Source: Eledone cirrhosa (Eukaryota). From it: 64,000 bases of DNA. The stretch lies in contig OZ024746.1 in the NCBI GenBank assembly GCA_964016885.1, positions 55,180,001 through 55,244,000 on the forward strand, given 5' to 3'. The translations under genes and the position numbers were made by a program. The notes below the pieces were generated by a model that was not told the DNA's origin, ran no database searches, and saw only the letters and a list, made by a program, of their open reading frames with translations. Positions 6,658 to 35,091 of the stretch are shown piece after piece (position 1 is the stretch's first letter; every line of letters starts with the position of its first letter).

Positions 6658-7289
6658 TTGTTATACTTGGGGAGGGTCATATTTGCGTAATATTGCCAGA
6701 ATTAATAACGGAACACACTCACTGTTTGGTTGGTTTTCGCTTCTCGCACAAGCACAATAACAACAAGCACATAAACACACACTAGTCACCCAGCAGACAC
6801 AACACTATACACACTAGTCACACAGCACACATAACACTATGCACACACGCAAACGCATGCGCAAAGAAGACAAAATAAAATAAGATAAACAAACAAGCAA
6901 ATAAATAAATAAATATATAGACAGACTGAATAAAAAAATGGCGTAGACATACAACACAACAGGAGGAACAAATAATATAACACCACTGACGATGTTGCAG
7001 ATGTGCAACGAAAGATTTATGTAAATTATGTAAACTATATATATGTGTTTGTGTCTATATTGTATCTGTATTATTTTTGACCGTCGGTCAGTCAATGGCA
7101 ACATTGAGGACCGAGTAAGTTAGATCGCAGATATAAAAGACAGCGAGAAGCGAAAACCAACCAAACAGTGAGTGTGTTCTGTTATTAATTCTGGCAATAT
7201 TACGCAAATATGACCCTCCCCAAGTATAACAATATCTGTTTCGACACACGATTTCATATAAAAAACCTCGCTAAACTAATTCATCGCCG

Positions 7290-7368: not shown

Positions 7369-7434
7369 AATATATATATATAAATATATATATATAGATA
7401 TGTGTTTGTTTGTATTTGTTTATTTATTTGTTTA

Positions 7435-9038
7435 TTTGCACATTACTGATTGGTTGATAATGTACTCCCGATACGTTGATGATATAAACATCGTAGTAAA
7501 AACACCCCCACTACAGAACAGACAGGAATGAGAGAAAAACACCATGGAAAGCATCCAGCAAATAGCTAACTCCATCAGAGTATTAGAGTTACTATAGACT
7601 ACCCAAGCAAACATCCTAACCATCGATTACCTGTACTAGACACAGAGCTCTGGTTAGAAACCATTAATAACAACAAACAAATCCTCCATTCCCATTATGC
7701 AAAAACCTGACTTCCAAATATCTGATCCACCGAAACTCAGCTGTTTCGGATCACACCAAAATCAATATACTGATTGCAGATATGGTACGGGTGATGAGAA
7801 ACGTGTCCCGCATGTGCAACCCCAAAGAACTAGAGAGACACATACAACACTTCATCCACTGTATGCAGTTCTCTGGTTACAATCAGAGAGATAAAATCAG
7901 AGTATATAGAGGAGCCAGAACCAAATGGGAAAAAATGGTAAATAATGATACAAATGGGACCTGCCCCTTGTATAGGATCACATTTTGGAATAGAATAGAA
8001 AGAACTAGGAATAAGGTTAATAGAATAAACGCATGGTATGATAGCAATAAATACCAGAGTGTAATGTTTATCAATACAACCCCTAGAGGTGAATTAGCTT
8101 ACAAATTTAGAAGGGCCCTAGATAAACTTAATATTAACATAGTAGAAAGACCAGGTACCTCCATAAAAACACTTATTAGCAATACATGCCCTTTTCAAAG
8201 ACCTCCCTGTATAGATAAGAAATGCATAATATGTAAACTAAGCCCCCATATTAACTGTAAAACAAGAAATGTAGTATATAGCATAAGATGTACTGAAGGA
8301 CAATGTAAAGATAAGAATATAGTGTATATAGGTGAGACAGCTCGTAGAATAGGAGAACGGTTAAATGAACACTAGCGAGAACTTCAAGATAAAAAAGAAT
8401 CATCAATGCTCCACCAACATGCTAAATTGCATAAGGGTAAATTAGAGAACATAGAAATAAAAATAGATTCTACACACAGAAAAGACGCAATGTTTAGACA
8501 AATCACAGAGGCAATAAACATAAATGAACTCCAACCAAATTAAATAGAAAACATGAATGGAATAGCAACATCACAACTTAAAATTAAGGACAAAACGAAA
8601 ACACACACACACACATAGAACAAACAACCAACCAGTAACATGTAAATAAACAAATAAATACATAAAAACACACATACTCACCCGGATGTAACACATGCGC
8701 AAACTAAGCACACAACACACACAACAAGAAGATGGCGTAGGATAGAACAAAGGAGAGGCATAAAACAAAGAAAAGAAACCCCAGTCACTTAAGAGGTCAC
8801 AGAATGTGTGACGAAAGAACTTTGACAATATATGTAGAACCGTCCGGTTATGGAACCAACCAACCAACCGGAATGTTGTAAATTCTTCAAATTTATAAAT
8901 TTAATTCATAATAAATTGGAGTGAAGCTACTGGTGCGTGTGTTTCTTATTGGCAACATGACCCTCCCAAAGCATAACTATATTAGTTTCAACACACGTTT
9001 TCAGATAAAGGATCTTGCTAAAGAAATTCAGAAACGAA
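7435..9038 (+). mobile_element. 5'-truncated Penelope-like element (Nematis-like, tentative): RT C-terminus + GIY-YIG endonuclease + 3' UTR
   Basis: RYVDD, RLPVLD, SGY, PLYR, CIDKKCIIC linker, VVYSIRC...YIGETARRIGERLNEH, RQITEA. Frameshifts and a stop at 8373. Decayed HHR at 8784-8826 (gtca-CTTAAGA-g gtcaca..tgtgac-GAAA-gaac-TT-tgac). Confidence 0.85.
7782..8560 (+). pseudogene. PLE RT-thumb/GIY-YIG coding remnant
   Basis: ORF 7782-8375; endonuclease-like sequence continues past the TAG (RELQDKKESSMLHQH...RQITEAINI). Confidence 0.8.
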
Positions 9039-9042
9039 ATAT

Positions 9043-10212: not shown

Positions 10213-10465
10213 GAAAGATGAAATCGAAAAAGCAACAGGAGTCTTATTTAAAAAATATATATATATATATATATATTTGGTTACTTTACCGATTTCGCAA
10301 GTTTTTCTGCTTTTCAAAAGTAGATTTTAGATGGAGGGTCTGTGGTTTTTATCAACTCTACTTTTGAAAAGCAGAAGAACTTGCCAAACCGGTAAAGGAA
10401 CCAAATAATATATATATATTTTTTGTAAAATACGACGCCAGTTGCATTTTAGATTTCATCTTTTT
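10213..10465. repeat. Imperfect fold-back (~110-bp arms) carrying an HHR variant in each arm
   Basis: aaagatgaaatc...ttttcaaaagtaga / tctacttttgaaaagc...gatttcatcttt. Confidence 0.8.
10282..10322 (-). ncRNA. Minimal type I hammerhead, U3-A8 variant
   Basis: Minus: tactt-TTGAAAA-gcag aaaaac ttgc-GAAA-tcgg-T-A-aagta. The plus-strand mirror at 10359-10399 has palindromic ccgg but GAAA>CAAA. Confidence 0.55.
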
Positions 10466-11229: not shown

Positions 11230-11246
11230 ATATATATATATGTATA

Positions 11247-11280
<34 letters not shown>

Positions 11281-11626
11281 GAAACACACAGATACAGTTG
11301 GGTGCGGATGCATTCATGTATATATGTGTGTGTCCGCATGTATCTGTGTGTTTCTAAATATATTAATAACTCCCTCTGGTCGAGCAATCTTTGAAGTGTG
11401 GGGACAACTGGAAAGCTTCCATTACTCATACTTCTCGCCTTCTTCACTACCTCTTCTACGGCCTCGATATGAATACCCCCTCCGCCTCCGTGGTATTTTC
11501 TTCGTGGTTATAAGAGGCTTAGCTCTGTTTCTCGACCGTTATATCGCGTGACTATCTCCCCCTCCGCCTTTTGGGATTCTTTCTCACGTCGTGTAGACGC
11601 GTTCTTGAGACTAGTAAAATGAGGTA

Positions 11627-11714
11627 TCCTCTTGATAAGTCGGCAGACCTCGCAAGGACTCTATATCTTTGATATATTGTTTTTGTTTATGCCACGAAAC
11701 TACGTAGTCGAGGA
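11627..11714 (+). ncRNA. Type I hammerhead, U3-A8 variant, unit 1
   Basis: tcctc-TTGATAA-gt(c)ggca[long loop 2]tgccac-GAAA-ctacgtag-T-C-gagga; palindromic stem III ACTACGTAGT; predicted cleavage after C11709. Confidence 0.75.
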
Positions 11715-12217
11715 ATTTAGGAACAGTTTAGGTATGATACATTTTATTACTAATTACATCTAAATGTTTCTTCTCTCTTCATAATGTATTTTTAACTCTG
11801 ATACTGGTTCAGTCTGGTTCAAACTGAATTGGTCTGTCCCAGTCATTCATTGAGCAACATCGGTGAAGTTGGCACCCTTAACTCACAGTTGGGTGCGGAT
11901 GCATTCATGTATATATGTGTGTGTCAGCATGTATCTGTGTGTTTCTAAATATATTAATAACTCCCTCTGGTCGAGCAATCTTTGAAGTGTGGGGACAACT
12001 GGAAAGCTTCCATTACTCATACTTCTCGCCTTCTTCACTACCTCTTCTACGGCCTCGATATGAATACCCCCTCCGCCTCCGTGGTATTTTCTTCGTGGTT
12101 ATAAGAGGCTTAGCTCTGTTTCTCGACCGTTATATCGCGTGACTATCTCCCCCTCCGCCTTTTGGGATTCTTTCTCACGTCGGGTAGACGTGTTCTTGAG
12201 ACTAGTAAAATGAGGTA

Positions 12218-12305
12218 TCATCTTGATAAGTCGGCAGACCTCGCAAGGACTCTATATCTTTGATATATTGTTTTTGTTTATGCCACGAAACTACGTAGTC
12301 GAGGA
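12218..12305 (+). ncRNA. Type I hammerhead, U3-A8 variant, unit 2
   Basis: Same as unit 1 but the stem I 5' strand reads tcatc (one mismatch). Confidence 0.65.
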
Positions 12306-12808
12306 ATTTAGGAACAGTTTAGGTATGATACATTTTATTACTAATTATATCTAAATGTTTCTTCTCTCTTCATAATGTATTTTTAACTCTGATACTGGTT
12401 CAGTCTGGTTCAAACTGAATTGGTCTGTCCCAGTCATTCATTGAGCAACATCGGTGAAGTTGGCACCCTTAACTCACAGTTGGGTGCGGATGCATTCATG
12501 TATATATGTGTGTGTCCGCATGTATCTGTGTGTTTCTAAATATATTAATAACTCCCTCTGGTCGAGCAATCTTTGAAGTGTGGGGACAACTGGAAAGCTT
12601 CCATTACTCATACTTCTCGCCTTCTTCACTACCTCTTCTACGGCCTCGAAATGAATACCCCCTCCGCCTCCGTGGTATTTTCTTCGTGGTTATAAGAGGC
12701 TTAGCTCTGTTTCTCGACCGTTATATCGCGTGACTATCTCCCCCTCCGCCTTTTGGGATTCTTTCTCACGTCGTGTAGACGCGTTCTTGAGACTAGTAAA
12801 ATGAGGTA

Positions 12809-12896
12809 TCCTCTTGATAAGTCGGCAGACCTCGCAAGGACTCTATATCTTTGATATATTGTTTTTGTTTATGCCACGAAACTACGTAGTCGAGGA
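12809..12896 (+). ncRNA. Type I hammerhead, U3-A8 variant, unit 3
   Basis: Same motif as unit 1. Confidence 0.75.
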
Positions 12897-12965
12897 ATTT
12901 AGGAACAGTTTAGGTATGATACATTTTATTACTAATTATATCTAAATGTTTCTTCTCTCTTCATA

Positions 12966-14596
<1,631 letters not shown>

Positions 14597-17006
14597 CTAG
14601 AAAAAGAAATTGAGAAGGCGTATGTCTTCATAGCGCCACATATGGCGATGCTAAGCCGTGCCCTCGGGGAGGAGAAAACCGAAGAGAGGGATCAGGAGAA
14701 AGAGAGGGAAAAGGAAAAGGAAAAAGAAAAGGAGGAGAGCACAAGCACGGACCTGAAAGAAAATGATATACCCTCCGCCACAGGCAGGGAGGGCAGGCCG
14801 GGCAACCAACAAGCTAAGGGCAAAGGTGAAAAGCAAAATCACCTTCCGAAGGAGAACCAAGCGCAGAGGGACCAGTGGACAACTGTTCAAAGGAAGAACA
14901 GAAAGCACCGAGACACTGGGTGCAAAAAAAACCCAGGTAATGTGCAAGTTTTTCAAGAACGGGACATGCTGGCATGGAGAGACAGGGATGGGATGCAGAT
15001 TCGCCCACCCTAGGTCTCAAACGAACTATGCCCATCATCCTCGCGCAACATGGCCCAGCCAAAGCCGAAATAAGCCGCTCCAGAAGTATGCTGATGTCGC
15101 GTTTGCCGCACCAACAAGGAGAAGGCACGCACATGCCGACGAGATACAGATGGCAGCAGCAGATCAGAAACATTTTTTAGTGATGGCAGAGAAGATTGTG
15201 GGACACCTGACCTAGCTGCATCGTCTCCAGAGCCAGGGTCATCCACACCAGCACTCGAGACCACCACAGTTAAAGGACCCAGAGTGGCCGCCGTTGACAC
15301 TAGACCAGGTGTCATACCGACAGCCATTACTTGCACCCCAAAAGTCACACCAGTGCTGCTGCTGAATGTCAGAGGCCTGGTGAAACTCAGTAACATGAGT
15401 AACATTTCCTACCTGGGAGACTTAGCCATAAGCCATCAAGCACTATGCATGGCACTAACCGAAACGCACCTGACAAGCAGTATAGTAGATGCAGAAATAC
15501 ATATACCGAAATATACTGTATTTCGTTCGGACAGGAAGGAGAGAAGTCATGGTGGGTTTGCTCTGTATATCCGTGAAGATGTCACACCAATTGTACTGTT
15601 GACACATTCAAACTCAGTCTGTGACACACTGATAATACATATGAAGCAACTACAGACAGTAATATGTGTCACATATCGGCCGCCCGATGCCCCCAGTCAT
15701 GAGGGTAAATTTGAGGATAGCCTAAGTAAGATAGAAGAGGTCCTTGACAAACTGGACCAGGGTCTCAACATCCTACAGCTGGGAGACTTCAACCTACCAA
15801 AGGTCAAATTGCGTGAGGGCCACCTCCTCCCTGGAATGACGTCAATAGAACAGAGAAAGACGGAATCCCTGCTGGCCCTCACACACAGGTTGTTCATGGA
15901 GCAAGCAATACTCCTCCCAACAAGAGGCGAAAATGTCCTGGACCTCTGTTTTACAAACAACGAAGTGCTCATCCACAATGTAAAGGTGACACCAACAATT
16001 CTCTCGGATCATAACTTAGTAGATCTAATGATATGTGGTCCAAGAGAACCAACAGAGACAAAACCACCAAGAAGCTCCGGGACGCTATCTAGCCTTAACT
16101 TCTACAAGGTTAACTGGAAAAAAATTAAGAGTGAAATCCGAAAGCAAACATGAAGTGAAAACACCGCCACAAAAGACACTAACACACAATTTCAACACTT
16201 CATGACAACGATACATACCATATGCAAAAAGTTTGTCCCGGAGAAAGAGGCAAACAGACACAAAAATCTTATTCCCAGAGATAGGAAAATCCTTATGAGA
16301 CGTAGAACTAAACTCTCAAACCAGTTGAATAGTCAACAAAACAAAAACAAGAAGGAATCCTATTTGAAACGTGCACTACTTGACACCGAGATTGCACTCA
16401 AACTTTCACATAAGAATGAGAGGGCAAAGAAAGAGAACAGGGCCACAGAAAACATTAAAAGAAACCCTAAGGCCTTCTTTAAATTTGCAAAAGAAACTGC
16501 CTCAGTACACTGCAAGATTGGGCCACTCTTCCACACGGACGGTTCATTAACCGAAAACCCCCAAGAGATATGTGAAATACTGAACGAACAGTACAAAAGT
16601 GTCTTCACATGTCCACTGAGGCACATGAAAATAACGAAGCCAGAGGAGTTCTTTGATGCCACAACACTACATCAAGAAATGGCAACCATCAACCACATAG
16701 ACATAACAGAGGAGGATGTGGTGTACGCCATTGATGAAATTAGAACAGACTCGGCTGCTGGACCTGATGGATTCCCAGCAGTTCTCTTAAAAATATATAA
16801 GCGGGCCTTAGCAACTCCACTGAAGATGCTCTTCAGAAGCTCCTTGGCTAGCGGTGTACTACCCAGGGAGCTGAAAGAAGGCACAATATGCCCTATCCAT
16901 AAAGGAGGTAGTACAGCGGAGGCCATGAACTATAGGCCAGTCTCCCTGATGTCGCATATCACTAAGGTCATGGAGCGAGTCGTCAGAAAGAAACTAATCA
17001 CTTTCC
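14597..17006 (+). mobile_element. CR1/L2-group LINE, 3'-truncated
   Basis: ORF1 remnant with CCCH finger CKFFKNGTCWHGETGMGCRFAH; APE endonuclease; RT start (SAAGPDG, PIHKGG, NYRPVSLMS, KVMERVV); breaks off at ~17006. Confidence 0.9.
15284..17006 (+). pseudogene. ORF2 (APE endonuclease + N-terminal RT) with an in-frame stop at 16151
   Basis: LLNVRGL, LTETHL, DRKERSHGG, YRPP, GDFNLP, PTRGENVLDL, SDHNLV; ORFs 15284-16153 and 16202-17047 are in the same frame. Confidence 0.9.
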
Positions 17007-17332
17007 TTACCTCTTTTACTTCCGCATCTAAGTGTACGTGTGTGTAGGTGTGCCTTCATATTCTTATGATGTATCTATTATGTCTGTAGATTACAGACAT
17101 ACAGATACATTTGCCCTAAATTATATATTTACGCACACGTTTTCACTATACGTATACATATGTGCATACACATATATGCACATCTGTGAGCGTATATACA
17201 TACATATACACACACCTAACTATATTTCTTGAAAGATTATTATATATTTCATATTCTAATTCATTTGTCTATATCTTTTTTGTTTTTTTGCTTTTCTTGA
17301 TGAGACTTTCCAAGTATTTACCCATGTTTTAT

Positions 17333-20399: not shown

Positions 20400-23300
20400 C
20401 ACCATGGCCCATTCGAGAAGAGAATTACTGTTTGCGGAGACATATCCGGGTGTGGGTGGTTTGTCCGGGATTACTTGGAGGAATTTATCCAAAGACTTCT
20501 TGAATTTTGTGTGGTCAGTTTCTGTTTTGACGTGTCCTGGTGTGATGTTGAAGAGAGCAGGGCCGATTGAGGTGAAATAATTGTGCCGTATTGTTGTTAT
20601 GAGTTGCGATTTAGATTTTTGAATGGGACGGATAGCATGGGGCCAAGCCTTGGGTGTATCTTGAAGGTGATGCCAACATCATTTGGGCAGTGATGATGGA
20701 ACATTTTCCACATCATGCAGATAATATAACGCTCACGGCGACGTTGGAGTGAGTAAAGTTTCAGGTTTTCTAATCGACCCCAGTAGTCATGGTCTGACAT
20801 GCCATCTATCTTTTTCGTGATTGCCCTTTGAGGAGCTTCAAGTTTCATGATACTTTGTTTCGTGTGGGGAGACCACAGTGGACAACAGTATTCAAGGTGC
20901 GGTCGGGCAAAAGTAGAGAAGAGAAGGATAATGGTGCGGGAATCTCTCGACTGGAAGGTTCTGAGGATCCAGGAACACATTCTGCGGGCCATGTCAACTT
21001 TGCTGCTTATATGCGTGGTCCAGCTTATGTTGCTGTCCACGGTTACTCCCAAGTCTCTGATGTTGTTAGATGCCACGAAAGTTTCCCCGGAGGGAAGGGA
21101 GTACGGGAGTTTCAGAGCATCCTCTTTTCCAAAGTGGATCAGTTCGAATTTGTCTTCGTTCAGTAACATGTTGTTCTTTTCTGCCCATTGGGTAACAGCC
21201 AGTAGGTCTGACTGAAGGCTTATCCGGTCATCCACGCCATTGATGACCTTTTGGAGCTTGGAATCATCAGCGAAAATGTTAATGTTGCTGTGTTTGATGA
21301 TGTCAGTGATGTCATTAATATAGATGATGAAGAGAAGTGGACCCAACACAGTGCCTTGTGGGACCCCACTACTGACTTTGGCTGGGCTTGATTTGACTCC
21401 CTCAACTACAACATGTTGGGTTCTGTTTGACAGGAAGCTCTTGATCCACTGCAGCAGCTTTCCAGTGACACCAATATTGGACAGCTTTCTCAGTAGAATG
21501 TTATGATTAACCCTGTCAAAGGCCTTGCTGAAATCAAGGTAGATAACATCAGTGTTGGAACCCTCTCCCAAGGCTCTCAAAATGTCATCAAAGTGATGCA
21601 GTAGCTGCGTCAGGCAATCCCTTCCATTACGGAATCCATGCTGGTTGGAGTTCAGCATATTGTTACTCTCAAGGAAGTGGGTCATTCGCGATCTCACCAC
21701 TCTCTCAAATACCTTAATGATATGAGAGGTGAGTGAGATTGGACGGTAATTCACGGCAAGGGATTTGTTTCCCTTTTTGAAAACTGGGACAACAGACTGG
21801 GATAGAAGGTTTTCTGGCACATATCCAGCATCCAGTGAGTTCCGCCACAGATTGGCAAGAGGAGATGCAATTTGGTGTTGACACGCCTTCAAGACACAAG
21901 CAGGGAACCTATCGGGACCTACTGCTGAATTATGCTTGATTTCGTTTATTGCCGCCAAGACATCAGGGGCGCCAAACGTTATGTCCGATAAGGTGTAATG
22001 GGGAGTAACATCGCCGATACAGCCCAGATCGGCCATATCAGGATTGCTGAAAACAGAGCAGTATTGTTTCTGCAGTATCTCACCCATGGTGTTAGCATTG
22101 TCTTGAAGAGTGCCATTTTCATCAATTAGAGGGCCAACAGCAGAGCCAGTGATTTTGTGTTTTTTTGCAAATGAAAAGAACACTTTGGGATTGAGTTTGA
22201 TCTTCTCAATGGCCCAGGCCTCTTCAGCTCTTCTCTGATTGTTGATGAGGGAAATTATATTGTTTTGGAGGTTATGTTTTTTAATCTCTAGTGATGAAAT
22301 AGCAGTCAAGTTGATGTGTTGCTGCTGACGGTATTTCAGCTTGTTGATTTTTTTGTTCGTTCTCTTAATTTTTCTGATGAGCGTTTTTCTATTTCTAGGG
22401 ATTCTGCTCTTAGATTTGTTTATAGTTCTTAATGGGGTGTGTTTAGCACATATGTTTGTAACAGTGTCCACAAATGTCTGCCAGGACTTTTTGATGTTAG
22501 TGGGTGTATGAGTGTGCGTGAAGGACCAGTCGACATGTGCAAGATCATGACTGATCGCTTCCCAGTTTGCATTGTGGAAATCCATAGCGTCAAACGGATG
22601 GACAGGAGAGATGACATTGGGTTTGTATATTGGACGGTGGAATCTCAGATCACAGAGAACCATGTCATGATCAGAGAGTAGAGTTTTCTCCACTGCAATA
22701 TTGTGGATATTGTCAGTGTGATTGCTGAAAATTAAGTCTAGGACGTTTTTGTGGCACCTCGTTGGTTCGAGCACCAGTTGGGATAGGAAGAAATCATCGA
22801 TGAAGTCAAGAAGCGATTCCACAGCTTCCCTGTCAGAGGTTGAGGCAGAAGAACCTGGTGGCAGGCTGTTTGTGGACCAGTCAACTCCGGGGAGGTTGAA
22901 GTCCCCCATCATTAAGATGTTGTTTAGGGTGACACTCTTGGATGAAACACTTTATGCTGTTGAGGCATTCCTTGAAGCATGGTACAGGCGTTTGGGGTGG
23001 CCTATAGAGCCCAACTACTAATAGGTTGTTGGTTTGACTGAATACAGTGACTGCTTCACAGTATCCATTAGAGAATATGTTCATAGCCTCTGTTGAGAAA
23101 GAATTATGGACATAAATGGCAGTTCCGCCCTTTCTTCTGCCAGCGCGATCAGCACGGATGGCTTTGAAATTTTTCACTTTCACCTCGGCTTCCAAGTGGA
23201 GGTTACTGAGATGGGTTTCAGTGAGGACGAAGAAAGGGATGTGGTTTGGATGGACATCAATCCAGTCCTCCAGGAATTTGATCTTCCATTTTTGAGTATT

Positions 23301-26184: not shown

Positions 26185-29100
26185 TTACAGATATATACTC
26201 AGAGTAGGCCCATTCACTCGGGCCATTCTTGCTTCTCTCACCCATCTTTCAACAAAATGCTGGGAAGAGAGCACTTCCCTCTCTACTCTGATTTTCCTTT
26301 TCAAATGAAATTTGAAAAAGTCAATCAGAACATCACCGAAGAGGTAAGTGCTCGTCTTCAGCCCTTTCAAACGTGTCCACCATACTATCTCTTTCGCCAT
26401 GGCCACCAGACAGATAAAAACTGCCTGCCCTTCCCGGCTAAAGGAGGAGGGCGGGGCAATCCTCACGATGGACTCAGATGATAGCCGGATCCGTCCTAAA
26501 CGCGACAGCAGGTGTTCGACATAAACCCACAAGTCAGCAATTTTCGGACACTGGACGAGTGCGTGCAGGACGGTTTCGTCGCCCTGCGCGCATCTCGGAC
26601 ATGCCCTGCTGACGGCACCTCCATGCCTGTCGAGTTTATCCCGAACTGGCAAGGCTCCTCGGTAGCACTGCCAGGCCAGAGATTTCTGGAAGTTGTCCAT
26701 AGGCCCTGGCCCGAAAGTTCTTCCGAAGAGATTGGCTAGTTGATTTTCGTCGACGCCTAGAGTTTACCCAAGTACGTCGTCGCTCTTCCCCTCCACTAAT
26801 CCTCTATAGAACGCCGAGGTGGAGTTTCCACCGATCACATTGCCCGATTGGTCGAGGGCTGTGAGCGCCTGAAGACATTCCAGTCTCCAGGCGCTCCCTC
26901 TCGGTCTTCGCTTGACCCAGGACTGCAGCTCCGTCAAGGAAACGAGCTGGGGAAAAACGCGTCTAGCAAACGGCGACCACACCTGATCACCGTCGAGGAA
27001 GAGGTGGAGATGTCGTAGCCTGAGCGCGTGCCTGCGCATCATCAGCCACGGCATGCCCAGCCCTCCACGTAGCGGGTGTTGACAACAGATGGACCGCCTG
27101 ACCATCGGAGCACGTCCCTTCCACAAAAAGCGAAAGAGCAAACGCTCCAGCGCAGTCAGGCGAGGCTTAGGACAAGGTACGACGGTTAGGCGGTAGCAGA
27201 TGACAGAGGCGATGTACGCGTTAGCCACCTCCGCTCGACCTTTCAGGGATAGCTTCCTCTCCGCCCATTTCTGGGTGAGAGAAGCCACCCTGCTCGTCAC
27301 CTCGTCCCAGTTTGTGTCCGTCTGGAGGTCCGGACCGAACCAGACCCCTAGTAATTTAACCGGTCCGTCCGTCCAGCGCCCGACGACGCTGTTGGACGGC
27401 ATGGACCTGCCTCTCCAGGTGCCGAGCTGCAGGCCCACTGACTTTTCCTGGTTGATCATTGCTCCTGTCACCGCTTCGTATTCTCTTAGTGTAGTGCCGA
27501 TCGCCTCGATGTGTTTGGCGTTCGACACCACTACGGTGACATCGTCCGCATATGCTGACACGGATCTTCCGCATCCTAGTTCGCGCGGGACTCCCCTCAA
27601 CGTCTCCAGTTTGTGCAGTAATGGCTCGAGAGTCAATACGTACAAGAGGGACGAGAGGGGACATCCTTGGCGGACCGAGCGCATGAAGTTGAACGGTTCC
27701 GACAGGTGACCGTTCACTATAACCACAGAGCAGATGTCGCTGTGCATGGCAGCGATCCAGCCTCTGAAGACGGGCCCAAAGCCAGCCGCCCTCAGGACTG
27801 CCGCTAGGTAACGATGGTCGACCCTATCGAAAGCTTTCGACTGATCTAAATTGATCAAGGACCCACCCGTGCCAGGTTCCCTAGCTACCCTCTCTACGAT
27901 GTATCGCATGAGGTGGAGGTTGTCGTGGATGGATCTGTCGGGTATGGCGCATGTCTGCGCCTCTCCCACCTCTAGCACCTTGGCCAAAATCTTGAACTCT
28001 GTGTTTAGCAGAGTTATGGGCCGGAAATTGTCTATGTTATCCCTCTTGTTCGGATCCTTTCTCAGCAGTGCCACCGCTGCTCGGCTTACAGAAATGGGAA
28101 TTCTCCCGTTCTGTTGCCAGTTGCAGTAGACGTCCGCCAAGAGGCCTCCGAACAAGTCTGGCATCTGTACGTAAAGTTCATAGGGCATACCATCCAAACC
28201 AGGCGATTTACCCGTTGTGCAGCCAGTCATTGCCTCCCTTACTTCAGCGGCTGTTATCGGCTTTTCGCAACACTTCGCCTCAGTGGCCGAGAGCCGCGGC
28301 AGTCCGTCGAGGTAGACACTAAAGTCCATCCCTCTACCCGGCCCACCGCTGCCCCCGAACAGCTGAGCGAAGTGTCGCTGAAAAGCTTCACACATTTGCC
28401 CGGGAACGAGTAGCATGCGCCCGTCGTGGTCCACCAAAGACCGGATCGTGGCTTTGTTGCCACGACGCGCCTCCGCCACTCGGGCCCATTGAACGGCTTT
28501 CGTCCCCTCGTGTCTGAGAGCACGCACCCTTGCTCTGACAACGCAGCCTTCGTGCTTTGCATTGAAGAATTGGTCAAGGGCCAATTTCGCCGCAAGCACG
28601 TCGGTCGCAATGCCTTTGCTAAGCGCCTCGTCTAATTTTCTAACTAGTTCTCCCTCTGCTCTATTTTTCTCTATTGCTAAAGCCTTACTAAAGCTAATCG
28701 ATTCTATTCTAATCGCTCTTTTCAGAGCAAACCACCATTTGTTGTTGACGATGGCCCCCGTCAACGCCCGCTTAACTAGTTCGCTAATCCGGTCTCTGTA
28801 GGCCTTGCGCGCTGGTAAGGACGCGTTTAGCTTCCAGTAGCCGGGTCCTCGTCTATGAAGCTTATCTAAGTCAAGCACACAGATCACGAATTTGTGGTCC
28901 GTGTAGCTGACTATCTTGAATTGTGGACAGCCTATGCTAGACCTATCTATTTCCCTACAAAATACTCCATCTAGATATGATCTGGATGACCCTATGCGGT
29001 TTGTCCAAGTCCACATTGGCACATTCGGGAAATCCAATCGGTACCTGTCAGACAGTTCAAAACGCCTGAGCAGGTTGGTGAGGCTCTTGCACCCTCCACC

Positions 29101-29547
29101 CCTATCCGCTAATCCCACACAGTCCCAGCGTGCATCTAAGATCCCGTTCCAATCGCCCACTAACACTAAAGAGCGGGACGTTCAAAGAAAAGTCTCCAGA
29201 CGCCGGAAGAAATCAGGCCGCCCTGCTCCTGTCGGGGCATAGACGGCCACTAGCCTGAAAGCTTGCCCGTCTCCGCTGGTCACGTCCAGGAAGATGGCCC
29301 GTATGGCGAGATCCAAACCTCTCCGAAAAAGCACAGCAACTCCTCCACCCGATCCAGGACGGCTGGGAGATGCGTACACATCGTAGACGCCGAAGATCGG
29401 TGCGAAAGCCCGTGCTTCGGAGATTCTGGTCTCGCTGATGGCCACTACATCTATGTTTAGTGACCTGAGGTCGTTGAGCAGGTGACCCTGCTTCCATGAC
29501 GACCCCAAGCCACGCGCATTTATGCTGCCTATTCTGAGTGAGGTCAT
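26185..29547 (-). pseudogene. Tx1-type ORF2; frameshift at ~29180 and stop at 26764
   Basis: GSINARGL, SETR, VYAP, GDWN, SYLD, TDHK, GPGYWKLN, KSPGLDG, NFRPITLLN, DQSKAFDRV, VRQGCPLS, AYADD, CPRC...ETVLHALVQCP. Confidence 0.93.
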
Positions 29548-29582
29548 GTTTAAAATAGAGTGGAAAAGATGGGAAAGACCAC

Positions 29583-31694
29583 TTACCGTACTTTTGGTAG
29601 AGGAGGGATGGTTTTTACATCCCTTTTCACTTGATCGTCTGGTGAAGGGACCGTTGAATCGTCCCTTCGGCTGGTCGTCGGCTCTTCTAAGAGAATATCT
29701 GAATATACTCTTCGATTGATGGTTCCTCCTAGGTCCCTGAAATCACCAACTGCGTTGGGGAATTTCGTTTTAATGTTTGTGTATTGTTTCTGTGCTATTT
29801 TTAGCAGTCTTATGTTAGTTGGCGTTTTGATTGGTGCTGGTATTATGTAGTCCTGTTGTGAAATGTCTGTGTGTTCAATTATGTAAGTCATTAGTTTCTT
29901 GTTGTGTGTATTTATTACCGTGCATTTGTTTTTCTGGGGGTGGGGTGTGGTTCTGCTATTTTCTTGTCGTTGTTGCTGGGAAGTGTGTGTTTTGTTGTTG
30001 TGTTTGCGATGTTGGTGCTTGTGGTGGTGGTGTTGAAGGTGTTGTTGGCGGTGGGGTTGTCGCCGGTGGTGATGGTGGTGCTAGTGTGGGTGGTGATGGT
30101 GTTGGTGGTGTTGCTGCTGTGGGTCTCTTTGCAGTAGACTTTACCCTTTTCTAATTTCTTTCCTCCCTTTTCAAAGGCGACGATGCGCTGCTTCTGCGTT
30201 TGTGCCTTCTTACGAGCTTTTGCCATCCCTCTCCCACCTCACACTCCATGTCTGATTCTGTGAGGTCGGGGAGGGGTACCAGCTCCACTCTTTCACTTGT
30301 TGTTGTTGGTGATGTTTGCACTGGAGTCTCTGTTGCAGCTGCATTTGGTATTGCTGTTGTTGTTGTTAATATTTCCACTGCTGCTGCTGTTTTTGATTTC
30401 CGTGGAGTGGGTATGGGTGCCACGGACCTATCGTTCCTGGTTACCGCTTGTCCTGTTGCTGGTAGCCGTGGAGCCGGATTCGGAAGGAGGGGGTTTTCTT
30501 CTTTCTCAGGGTCTTCTCGTTGCAGAAGGCCCTGAGGTGAGTCTTCGATCCACAGCGAAAGCATTTCGGTCGTTTGCCCTCAACACTTATGGGCAGTTGA
30601 GTGCCGTTATCGAAGTCTATCACATCCGGGATAGCTTCGATGCACTCCTGGTTGGTTTGGATTAGCATCTCAATGGAGGTGCCTACCCAATCTTCTCTTA
30701 CTTTTTTCTGTACTTGCAGTACAGTTGTTTTGTCCTCGATTCCGACGAGGACAGACGCGGCCAGCCAAGAAGCGGCCATTCCGGGGGGGGGGGGGGGGAC
30801 GTGGGTCAGTTTGACCCTCACAATTTTTTGCCCGCAGTAGGAGGGCACCAACACCATTTCCTCGCTCCTTAGGGTCACTACTGATTGGGCCTTTGCCTCC
30901 TGGGGTGTGGCAAAAAGTACGTCTACGGTGGCATATTTTTTGCCTCGGGTGATGTGCGTTTTCCGCTGCCACACAGACCCCAAGGCTTTTTGTATTTGGG
31001 CCTCTGTGGCTCCTTCCACCCTATGGGATTTTGTACTTACTGTACGGTACGTGACCGTACAGTGCTCTTGGGTTTCGAAAAATTTTTCCGCTGCCTTGCA
31101 GATTGCTCGGTGTCCTTTCTTTGTCACCATCTTCTTCGCTTCCTCTAATTCCTCATTTGTTATGAGGATTATTTCCAAGTTTTTCGCAATACCTGCAAAT
31201 GAGATTGGTTTTTCTCTGCTGCTGCTGTTGTTGTTGTCGTCAGAGCTGCTGGTACCTTTGTTGTTGCTGCAGGTACTACGACTACTGCCTCTGCCGCTGT
31301 TGTTGTGGTTGTTGTTGGTGTTGCTGCTGCTAATGCTGTTGTTGTTTATGCTGCTGGTGATGCTGTTGCGGCTGCTACTGTTGTTTTCATTGTCACTGTT
31401 GCTGTTGTTATTACGGCTGCTATTGCTATTATTCCTGACGTCAGACGAATGAACTGGGTTTTCGTATTTCCCGCACACCTGTTTCGTCGCTGTCGTCGTC
31501 GTCGTGGAGAAACCTTGCACGCTTTGCACGAGACTTTTCTTTTCTTTCGTCACTTGCAAAAGAGAAGGGAGGGAGAGAGACACATTTAAAGAAGGGAGGG
31601 AGAGAGACAATCTTCTCTCTGCTGTAGTGATGATTGAGGAAGAAGAAGACGGAATGAGTGGGAGTGACGTATGAAATTTCTTTTTCGTAGCCAT
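29583..31694 (-). pseudogene. Tx1-type ORF1 (gag-like, CCHC knuckle), frameshifted, low-complexity
   Basis: PKCFRCGSKTHLRAFC; N/S- and T-rich segments; continues through frames 30151-30564, 29915-30226 and 29583-29891. Confidence 0.75.
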
Positions 31695-32320: not shown

Positions 32321-32444
32321 CCTATTATATGAATTCTTACCTTTTGAAATTTACGGTCACTCATACGCAATGATTATATAACAGATATATACTTCTTTCT
32401 CTCTCTCTCTTTCTCTCTCTCTCTCTATCTAACTATATTCATAC

Positions 32445-32502
<58 letters not shown>

Positions 32503-32504
<2 letters not shown>

Positions 32505-34611
32505 CTCAGCGACGAGTTCCGCACCCGAACGGAAGTCGAGCGATTCGTGCGACGCACTAAGCTGCAGGCACATTTCAGCCGAACGCCACCGGCTCCGGAC
32601 GCCCCAGACCCGTTTCTCGCCCTGGGCCGACGACCATCTTCTTGGACGCCGGCCCCAGGGCAATTTAGCACCCTGGACGCCTTCGTCGATGCCAGCCGTA
32701 GCGCAGTAAATCGTTTCGACTTCCGCCACCGTTCCAAACGGCACAACATCTCACGGGGCGAACTCCTCGCTCTCCGCTCCCTCCGTAGCCGAGATGACAT
32801 CGTCATCAAACCGGCGGACAAGGGGGCGCCGTGGTGGTATGGCGCGCGGACCTCTACACGGCCGAAGCCCTCAGGCAGCTCTGTAACCACCTCTTTTACC
32901 GCCCTCTACCCTCCGATCCCACCCCCCTCTACCAACAACAAGTCTCCTCCACCATCAAAGATCTTATCGCCTCCTCCCTCCTCCCCCACCGCTTACCACC
33001 TCATCGTCCGCACCCCCCGCACCCCCACCATCTACTTCCTCCCCAAACTACACAAACCCTACAACCCCGGCCGCCCCATCGTCTCCGCTTGCAACTGCCC
33101 CACCGAACTCATCTCCGCCTTTCTCAACTCCCTCCTCGCCCCCCTTGTCACCACCCTCCCCTCCCACATCTCCGACACCAACCACGCCCTGCGCCTTTTC
33201 GACTCCTTCACCTACCTACCCGGCCCTCAGCCATTCCTCTTCACCCTAGACATCAAGTCCCTCTATACCGTCATCCCCCACGCCGACGGCCTTCGCGCCC
33301 TCAAACACTACCTCGACCTTCGCCCCTCCCCCATTCCCTCCACCCCCACCCTCCTTCGCCTCGCCGAGCTGGTCCTCACCCTAAATTATTTCTCCTTCTC
33401 GGGTGAGTTTTACCAACAGGTCACGGGGGTAGCCATGGGCACAAGAATGGGCCCGAACTATGCCAACCTTTTTGTTGGCCATGTTGAGGCCCAAATCTTT
33501 GCCCAGTACACCGGCCCCACGCCCGAACTGTACGGTCGTTACATTGACGACTGTATCGGAGCCACGACCCTCACCCGAGTACAGCTCGACTCCTTTCTCT
33601 CCTTCTTCTGCTCCTTCCACCCCTCCCTCCACTTCACCACCTCTATCTCCACCACCCACGTCCACTTCTTAGACATCTCCGTGGCCTTCGACCCCTCCCA
33701 CCACTCCCTCGTCACCTCCGCCTTCTTCAAACCCACCGACTCCCACTCTTACCTCGACTTCACCTCTTCCCACCCCACCCACACCAAGCTCTCCAATCTC
33801 TACTCCCAACTTCTCAGGATCCGCCGCCTCTGTAGCCGTGATGCTGACTTCGAGTCCCAGGCCCTTTCCCTAGTCAGCCATTTCATCCGCAGAGGTTATC
33901 CCCCTCTCTCGTCTACACCGCTCTCACCCGCGCCCGTGCTATCCCCCGCTCCACCACCCTCACCCCACGCCACTGCACACCCACCCACCGTCTCCCCTTC
34001 CCCATCACCTACCACCCCTCCACCTTACCCCTCCAACGCACCATTCGCCGCCTCTTCCGACGCCTCCAGTCCGACCCCTCCACCTCCCACATCTTCCCAA
34101 CCCCACCACTCCCCTCCTTCAAACGCGCACGCAATCTCCGCACCCTCCTCGTCCACAGCTCCCTACCCCCCAACCCACGCTCCGGTTCCCCGCCGGTTCC
34201 TTCCCCTGTTCTAGGCCCCACTGCAACACCTGTCCCCACATCACCAACACCACCACCTTCCAGGGTCCCAACGGCCACTCTCTCTCGGTCCGGCATGCCT
34301 TCCGCTGCACCTCCTCCAACCTAGTCTACGGACTTCGTTGCACGGAGTGCAGCGCGACTTATGTCGGACAGACGGGACGTCGCCTGGCGGACCGAGTCAC
34401 GGAGCACCTCCGGGATATTCGTCTCGGGGGCAGTTCCCCCATCGCCCGCCACTTTGGTGGCCCTGGACACTCCGCACGCCATCTCACAGTCTGTGGCCTA
34501 CTCCAGTGCCACGGAACACCCGCCCATCGCCTTACGGTCGAACAACGCACTATCTTCATCTTACAGACCCACACTCCCCCTGGCCTGAACTCCCCACCCT
34601 TATTCCTTTAG
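32503..34611 (+). pseudogene. PLE RT + Cys linker + GIY-YIG endonuclease (about 3 frameshifts)
   Basis: A frame absent from the ORF track gives CSRPHCNTC...CTSSNLVYGLRCTECSATYVGQTGRRLADRVTEH...PIARHF...EQRTI...PPGLN, with TAG at 34609-34611. Confidence 0.9.
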
Positions 34612-35091
34612 CGTTCGATCGCCCCCTCCCCCACACTTATCCCACACTAACACCACTAACACACCCCTCCTTTTCACCGCCCTACCCACACTAACAATAC
34701 TAACACCTTCACTCCACCCCTCATCTGACCACCCTTCCCCAACTAACATACTAACATCCCTTCCCTCCCCTCTTCTCCTCCTCCCCCTCCTTATCACACG
34801 CACACACGCACCCACTTACACCACCCACCCCACACGCAACTAACGTCACTAACACCCCCAACCCCACGCACACACCCTCGTACACCACCAACTCTACACA
34901 CCCTACCACCACTAACCCCCACTCACACCTGCATTCCACCCCTCCCCACCTCCCGTATACTAACACCCACTAACACCTCTTCACCAAACGACACACACAC
35001 CAGTACACCACACTCCCTCCATAGAACCACACACACCCTTCTCTCCCCGCTCCACACTCACTCATCCCACTAACACCCCTACTAATACACA

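Follow-up and report, generated by a model that had tools for sequence, protein, structure and literature searches.

A 591-bp tandem array between (TA)n tracts

In the window, a stretch of 64,000 nucleotides from the Eledone cirrhosa genome (contig OZ024746.1, positions 55,180,001 to 55,244,000), a tandem array of a 591-bp unit lies between two (TA)n tracts. The features of this insertion are given below; unit position 1 is defined as the predicted cut site of the hammerhead motif.

11230-11280, no strand: left (TA)n target tract
11280-11296, minus strand: inverted 17-nt piece of the site-B end, read directly from the sequence
11294-12971, plus strand: forward arm, 2.84 units of 591 bp, with its 5' end at unit position 176 and its 3' end at site A
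11621-11714, plus strand: hammerhead motif 1, predicted cut at 11709/11710
11710-12300, plus strand: predicted monomer 1, 591 nt from cut to cut
11720-11789, plus strand: site A, hairpin and fixed 3' end at unit position ~80; further copies at 12380 and 12971
11880-11954, plus strand: site B, hairpin and fixed 3' end at unit position ~245; further copies at 11363 and 12545
12212-12305, plus strand: hammerhead motif 2, predicted cut at 12300/12301
12301-12891, plus strand: predicted monomer 2, 591 nt
12803-12896, plus strand: hammerhead motif 3, intact, predicted cut at 12891/12892
12969-13047, no strand: right (TA)n target tract, overlapping the TAT of site A

The preliminary description of this DNA had recognized about 2.8 near-identical 591-bp units within TA repeats, which agrees with the 2.84 units found between the two tracts. 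Self-identity of the array at a lag of 591 amounts to 98.3% (33% at the runner-up lag), the three unit-versus-unit comparisons revealed 5, 5 and 2 differences, and 4/6 of the unit differences are concentrated in a single unit. Two details had been missed before. The inverted 17-nt piece at the left end, which shares a 3-nt overlap (11294-11296) with the forward arm and is absent as a separate arm in a BLAST search with the unit, makes the window insertion a tiny inversion. In addition, the unit of motif 2 carries a C>A change at 12220, a mismatch that weakens stem I.

The unit contains 246/591 G+C (42%), i.e. less than 50%, and the longest ATG-initiated ORF in the circularized unit encodes only 75 aa, in line with the earlier view that it is non-coding. 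A scan for sigma-70 promoters, a bacterial promoter type that is irrelevant to animal DNA, gave fewer sites than the chance count. The predicted fold of monomer 1 is more stable than 100/100 shuffled sequences (z -3.75). Sites A and B are spaced by 165 nt; the site B hairpin reaches z -3.84, with 1/200 shuffles equally stable, and the site A hairpin by itself is without significance (z -1.34). No insertion-wide private variant was found in the array of the window, so the inference of a single monomer template developed below applies to the family, of which the window locus is an ordinary member.

Hammerhead motif, predicted folds and constraint

A hammerhead with a U3-A8 core had been proposed for each unit, and the corresponding type I motif (tcctc-TTGATAA-gtcggca...tgccac-GAAA-ctacgtag-TC/gagga, the slash marking the predicted cut) was indeed found three times. 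Motif 1 comprises a 5' GAGGT, stem I, the U3-A8 core (11632-11638), a long stem II with an ACCTC bulge and a palindromic stem III. When folded in isolation, the motif adopts a three-way junction (z -2.24; 5/200 shuffles equally stable). An Rfam search of the window array returned no hammerhead family up to E=10, and the ribozyme call therefore rests on the motif, the folding of the isolated motif and its conservation.

As described previously, stem III is palindromic: its strand is a 10-nt palindrome with a self-duplex energy of -13.1 kcal/mol versus +1.5 for the monomer hairpin, and on these computed energies the palindrome favours a dimer. Also present is the complementarity between GAGGT (11621-25) and ACCTC (11647-51), which had been interpreted as a pseudoknot or a competing fold. 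Folding predictions in context by ViennaRNA, in which pseudoknots are not modelled, bear out the competing fold, with a predicted stem I probability of ~0 in the circle and of at most 0.013 in nascent transcripts with at least 60 upstream bases; the winning pairings join GAGG with CCUC in a hairpin (0.87) and GAGGA with unit positions 67-71 (0.97). Such a predicted misfold may shield the circle, cleavage being switched on by the pseudoknot, a dimer or a protein, or it may alternatively mean poor ribozyme activity.

Each core position varies in no more than 1/344 units. Heritable variable sites inside the 33 core and stem I/III positions amount to 0/84 (p=0.005), a value to which selection of the sample may contribute, part of the 3' half of the core having served as search pattern; for the 5' half, which lies outside any search pattern, the count is 0/19 (p=0.052, borderline constraint). 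Across 20 aligned motifs, 96% of the cells are paired, and double changes are limited to two pairs of distal stem II. The GAGGU/ACCUC pairs are conserved, with no double change among the 20 aligned sequences, and because they never covary in this alignment we refer to the pseudoknot as putative. We consider cleavage by the hammerhead in vivo probable.

A dispersed family and its older sister

That the array belongs to a dispersed family, as the preliminary description had anticipated, is evident from an exact hammerhead 21-mer spanning the cut site, which has 7,244 matches on many contigs of the genome (3.0 Gb), compared to 0 for the control. The first 100 matches fall into ~48 clusters, from which we extrapolate to ~3,500 insertions. 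In total, 134 insertions were read, comprising the best DNA matches, places from the 21-mer list and mostly multi-unit places of two subfamilies; this sample is non-random and leans to young, long arrays. Arms below 55 bases or 85% identity were left out. Several loci were dropped before counting, either because they overlap with loci already used (L004, L009, L014, L020 and most of L031-L060), as a likely segmental duplicate (L058, of L055) or as a local duplicate (L137 and the second arm of L138), while L133 was split into two insertions, and so was L189, whose two arms bear markers of different subfamilies. At L137-L138 (G000:C1 166.376-166.393 Mb), array and flanks are duplicated locally and the unit haplotypes are scrambled, representing a later amplification at the DNA level.

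An older sister family, ~75% identical and with a unit of 589-592 bp, shares the U3-A8 hammerhead and both end sites (loci L208:1404-2120, L191-L220 and L278-L307; 296 and 404 exact pattern matches). The hammerhead core is nearly invariant between the two families. The proposal of a retrozyme-type element matches what was found in the sequence, namely a non-coding, tandem and dispersed repeat with one type I motif per unit and a GC content below 50%; by the sequence features tested, the array family is a non-LTR retrozyme.

Insertion ends follow a two-site rule

The copies had been expected to begin in varying registers. This expectation held for the 5' ends, which are scattered, and failed for the 3' ends, which are fixed at sites A and B. 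More than half of the insertions (76/134) are inverted, with both 3' ends pointing outwards, and among these we counted 70 A+B pairs, no A+A pair, no B+B pair and six with one irregular end, compared to ~35 like-end pairs expected under independent choice; L189, if taken as one insertion, would be the single A+A exception. Insertions with a single arm number 58, of which 33 end at A, 24 at B and one elsewhere. Nearly all fixed ends (190/192) run into a TA tract, and the element sequence at these ends reads TAT or TATAT. At the opposite side, 12/212 5' ends lie within 10 nt of the cut site versus 7.5 expected, no 5' position recurs more than three times, and the 5' flank is TA-rich in 46/56 single-arm insertions.

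The family thus combines features of Penelope-type elements, i.e. 5' truncation, an inverted 5' copy, a tail at one end and a (TA)n target, and we have little doubt that it integrates in the Penelope manner. That the arms are strictly divided between A and B suggests that two enzymes work asymmetrically on one RNA.

Two explanations for the shape of the insertions were rejected. Fold-back as the general origin of the inverted arm is at odds with the positions of the arm 5' ends, which lie at most 30 nt apart in 10/67 cases (6.9 expected). A linear cut monomer serving as a dead-end template conflicts with the first sample, partly picked by a pattern spanning the cut site, where 100/111 arms cross that site.

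Search for a coding partner and other elements of the window

The preliminary description had named one finding that would reduce the array to a tandem of solo pLTRs, a unit always attached to a coding Penelope-like element. No coding body is attached in the 134 insertions or in 30 further loci selected via a variant 3' half of the hammerhead, the latter being sister-family copies except for two main-family copies. Likewise, the test for an autonomous Penelope-like element revealed no attached ORF with reverse transcriptase (RT) and GIY-YIG domains in these 134 + 30 loci (of ~3,500 insertions). Judged by this sample, the 591-bp family does not qualify as an autonomous Penelope element, although its mode of insertion resembles that of one.

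A partner was also searched for by sequence. The unit showed no similarity to the young Neptune-like family of the window (30 loci compared) and no match to Hydra-like (3' ends included), Nematis-like or Poseidon-like fragments in the flanks, and patterns for diverged relatives returned just non-coding sister-family copies and two main-family copies. Hydra-type ORFs with a CxCX5C linker in the flanks, plus other TA-adjacent families, are partner candidates without a sequence link.

Several other elements were noted along the way. Hydra-clade-like Penelope ORFs (CxCX5C linker, GIY-YIG) are found at 57138-57521 of the window, at L061:4639-6201, at L078:6135-7478 and in many distinct flank families. 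The window element at 32433-35090, which we take from its motifs to belong to the Neptune-like clade, is young and encodes RT and GIY-YIG domains followed by a C/A-rich tail (140/140 scored matches 91-100% identical; 16,044 candidates). The 3' part of another Penelope-like element (7430-9040, GIY-YIG region 7671-8375) ends at TA, and many loci have its end motifs next to TA tracts in their flanks. Near 6978, there is a hammerhead-like motif of the canonical type. The short inverted insertion at 53404-53820, placed between TA tracts and with two hammerhead motifs of canonical type, one per strand (53496, 53635), is probably the end of another Penelope-like family, and the inverted pair at 10261-10410, with hammerhead-like motifs TTGAAAA...GAAA (10317, minus strand) seen too in L035, is possibly another U3-A8 family. 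Further retroelement ORFs of the window (15095-17047, 20597-22951, 26185-29742, 61379-62185) presumably represent two endonuclease-RT LINEs, an L1/Tx1-like element and a Poseidon-like GIY-YIG fragment.

Rare variants mostly occur in all units of an insertion or in one

Next, we analyzed how rare substitutions, defined as present in at most three insertions at sites covered by at least two units, are distributed over the units of 104 young insertions. In total, 57 were found in all units, 167 in one unit and 23 in an intermediate number, and 18/23 intermediate variants sit in three arrays (L138, L160, L190) that were apparently duplicated later. No intermediate variant was detected in 43/50 deeply covered insertions. 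Three all-unit haplotypes, picked as striking, were searched genome-wide; 3/3 are confined to one insertion each, and two of them span both arms. The 29-mer of L091, an insertion with seven A>G and two other changes each present in 7/7 or 8/8 units, contains three A>G and has seven genome matches, all in L091 (four in the minus arm, three in the plus arm). The 28-mer of L087, also with three A>G, has two matches, both in L087, and the 31-mer of L139, with a G>C, has four matches, all in L139 and two per arm. The source of the private non-A>G changes of L139 is absent from the assembly, and lost sources are therefore real. A parent-daughter search within the sample gave ten candidate pairs, of which only L007-L008 was plausible, and was excluded from the argument.

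A linear multi-unit transcript passes a private change to one unit, and an arm cannot exceed its source; the pattern therefore points to one monomer that was recopied, either during the present jump or earlier, when a now lost parent inserted. A copying template with the length of the 591-nt monomer, predicted earlier as the product of transcription and cleavage, is supported at family level, and we regard a bottleneck of one monomer as highly likely. It could be argued instead that the template of the Penelope-like enzyme is an uncut, linear transcript of several units, derived from one of a few long homogeneous master arrays, hammerhead and circle being dispensable. Seamless junctions and random 5' ends are equally compatible with such masters, the sources can be missing from the assembly, the hammerhead is predicted to misfold in context, and the open-access text on the anole Poseidon element reports that unprocessed RNA was used in vitro and that hammerhead mutants had no effect on insertion (PMC11167929). 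However, given that an arm is at most as long as its source, L091, L139, L149, L153, L158 and others would each require their own lost long master, and the core is conserved across families ~75% alike. Editing, moreover, acts per molecule and site, and identical A>G clusters in 7/7 units and both arms require a monomer stage. Overall, we consider copying from linear masters unlikely.

The read-through of the cut site bears on the form of the monomer. Of 308 crossings, eight are imperfect; an indel was found in one, and added bases in none. Repeated jumps of the enzyme from the 5' end to the 3' end of the same cut linear monomer would predict the same all-or-one variants and private haplotypes. 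End-to-end template jumps usually scar junctions, as known for R2 and group II intron enzymes, so that the near-absence of indels and the lack of added bases count against such jumps; so does the lack of enrichment of 5' ends at the cut site. Jumping along a linear monomer is therefore improbable, and the clean crossings together with the missing pile-up of 5' ends favour the ligated circle, which we consider a likely template.

A>G excess among all-unit variants

On the ribozyme strand, the rare all-unit variants comprise 21 A>G versus 8 T>C (p=2e-4 for a composition of 133 A and 212 T), whereas the one-unit variants comprise 5 A>G versus 27 T>C (all-unit versus one-unit, Fisher p=3e-10). These opposite biases indicate that the two classes have different sources. 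The one-unit T>C excess, which on distinct sites gives p ~0.009 (104 young insertions), may reflect wobble errors of the reverse transcriptase. The A>G bias shrinks to 12 versus 8 distinct sites (p=0.043) without L091 and L087 and stands at 14 versus 8 when counted by insertion. A 5' G is disfavoured as a neighbour by ADAR enzymes, and the depletion of 5' G at the A>G sites is marginal (p=0.048), as is the pairing context, with p=0.04 for local pairing and 0.10 when counted per site. Relative to the sister family, no drift towards A>G over the long term was observed (19 A>G versus 18 T>C). We consider ADAR editing the probable origin of the A>G excess; editing of repeats is described as widespread in coleoids in the open-access text of PMC9068888.

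A further explanation places the growth of the arrays in the DNA: insertions of about one unit would have been expanded later in the DNA by unequal crossing-over and conversion, or solo pLTRs of a coding element would have piled up, with the A>G changes stemming from a transcription-linked asymmetry at the sources. In mammals, transcribed DNA is known to undergo A>G mutation in a strand-asymmetric manner, a precedent for the bias. In L138, L160 and L190, variants are shared in the nested manner that later duplication typically leaves, and four variants common to one unit per arm (L149, L166, L173) look as they would under conversion. Expansion in the DNA is disfavoured by the lack of intermediate variants in most deeply covered insertions, by private changes common to both inverted arms and by three A>G within 16-20 bases, which form a cluster and not a diffuse bias; for the pLTR version, neither a coding body nor a recurrent 5' junction was found in the 134 + 30 loci. 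All in all, an origin by DNA expansion appears very unlikely.

A second family replicates part of the pattern

The window harbours a second, unrelated insertion of the retrozyme type, a 468-bp array at 54053-56743, with 4.5 units plus 1.3 inverted units and a canonical CUGAUGA hammerhead in its unit (Rfam HH9, 37.7 bits). Fixed ends of this family lie at 229-235 and 301-305, ~70 nt apart. In a sample chosen for near-identity to the window copy, 24 of 27 insertions are inverted, 21 of them with one end of each kind, three unclassifiable and none with two alike, and the rare variants divide into 18 all-unit, 76 one-unit and 11 intermediate ones. No A>G excess was detected among the rare all-unit variants (2/18), and the one haplotype tested genome-wide was not private, having 146 matches over many insertions. 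Hence, in that sample the two-end rule and the all-or-one pattern replicate, but the A>G excess and the privacy did not. Sister arrays of the 468-bp family reach up to ~35 units (G000:C3 near 113.97 Mb).

Relation to known hammerhead elements

The comparisons in this section refer to the open-access text, without supplements, of the cited papers. Two points that the preliminary description had presented as unusual are not novel: the length range given for animal retrozymes, 51-972 bp (bioRxiv 10.64898/2026.07.22.740005), includes 591 bp, and U3-A8 has been described among the natural variants of the core (PMC4209133, PMC3088659). In common with metazoan non-LTR retrozymes (PMC7229834; bioRxiv 10.64898/2026.07.22.740005), the family is a non-coding tandem with GC below 50%, one type I hammerhead per unit, a palindromic helix III, thousands of copies and co-occurring Penelope-like elements. 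It differs from the metazoan retrozymes of 2020 (150-450 bp; PMC7229834) in its longer unit and, more generally, in its U3-A8 core, its long bulged stem II and the conserved GAGGU/ACCUC pair. While metazoan circles are mostly predicted to have a free ribozyme, the 591-nt circle is predicted to block it; 8/9 Xenopus retrozyme dimers remained uncleaved in vitro (bioRxiv 10.64898/2026.07.22.740005).

The same core covariation is present in the hammerheads of the Schistosoma Cercyon Penelope-like elements, where it is tolerated in vitro (PMC4209133; PMC3088659), whereas the motif described here sits in a tandem non-coding unit. A stem I-stem II pseudoknot is predicted for about 40% of the surveyed hammerheads (PMC3088659); compared to these, the pseudoknot strand of the 591-bp unit can in addition pair with stem I, a fold predicted to act as an off-switch. 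The anole hammerhead ribozyme required protein (PMC11167929).

With endonuclease-bearing Penelope-like elements, here Poseidon PAc of Anolis (PMC11167929) and the Hydra, Naiad and Neptune clades (PMC8557442), the family shares 5' truncation, partial tandems, a type I hammerhead, the inverted 5'-truncated copy, the one-end tail marking two RT starts and the targeting of microsatellites. The tail at one end and the TA targeting are known for Penelope-like elements, (TA)n being the target of the Hydra and Naiad clades (PMC8557442), and the 'tail' arises from two RT start sites (PMC11167929). Unlike the endonuclease-bearing elements, the 591-bp family has no ORF and a tail of 165 nt instead of 30-40. 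Its start sites are split by arm (70/70 resolved insertions), whereas the two strands did not differ for PAc in vitro; its ends share TAT or TATAT with the target, whereas priming by PAc took place without homology (PMC11167929).

Copying of a retrozyme circle into tandem cDNA by a Penelope-like enzyme has been proposed as a model (PMC7229834), and the mechanism from circle to DNA is described as still to be elucidated (bioRxiv 10.64898/2026.07.22.740005). An analysis of insertion ends and evidence from variant sharing, both given here, were not found in the open-access text of these two papers; across the open-access literature searched, we found no variant-sharing evidence for a circular template, no edits fixed in both arms and no start sites split by arm.

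A model for the spread of the 591-bp family

In our main interpretation, the window array is a young insertion of an abundant non-coding repeat with a predicted hammerhead per unit, whose monomer RNA circle a Penelope-like reverse transcriptase likely rolls round; we assign this reading a probability of about 0.7. The cycle would begin with transcription of an array. The hammerheads would then cut the transcript into 591-nt monomers, a step that conservation supports, which would be ligated to circles predicted to fold with the ribozyme off. Some adenosines of the structured RNA would be edited by ADAR, as the strand bias and clustering of A>G suggest. Subsequently, a Penelope-like protein would nick a (TA)n tract and prime at site A or B, where the RNA reads UAU or UAUAU; of these features, the fixed ends, their position next to TA and the overlap of 3-5 nt can be read directly from the sequence. 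If both target strands are primed, one start would fall at A and the other at B, giving back-to-back arms, and this end pattern is directly visible as well. Finally, each enzyme would run backwards round the same monomer, presumably a circle, and stop at a random point, so that every unit in both arms would inherit the private changes of that molecule, a pattern observed as such. The most detailed version, in which one ADAR-edited 591-nt circle with a built-in ribozyme off-switch is copied for several turns by two simultaneous Penelope-type enzymes, one from A and one from B, and its edits become heritable in both arms, has roughly even odds in our view.

Copying of circles by Penelope-like enzymes is a standing hypothesis, to which the 591-bp family adds mechanistic evidence at family level. 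This genomic evidence, for which we found no precedent in the open-access literature searched, concerns two of its steps, the Penelope-type integration of a non-coding element and a monomer template reused for many turns. If the model is true, retrozyme families would evolve through a bottleneck of one molecule per jump, and the genome would be a fossil record of single RNA circles. A-to-I edits that reach the germ line via a mobile RNA would then constitute a route from RNA editing to DNA.
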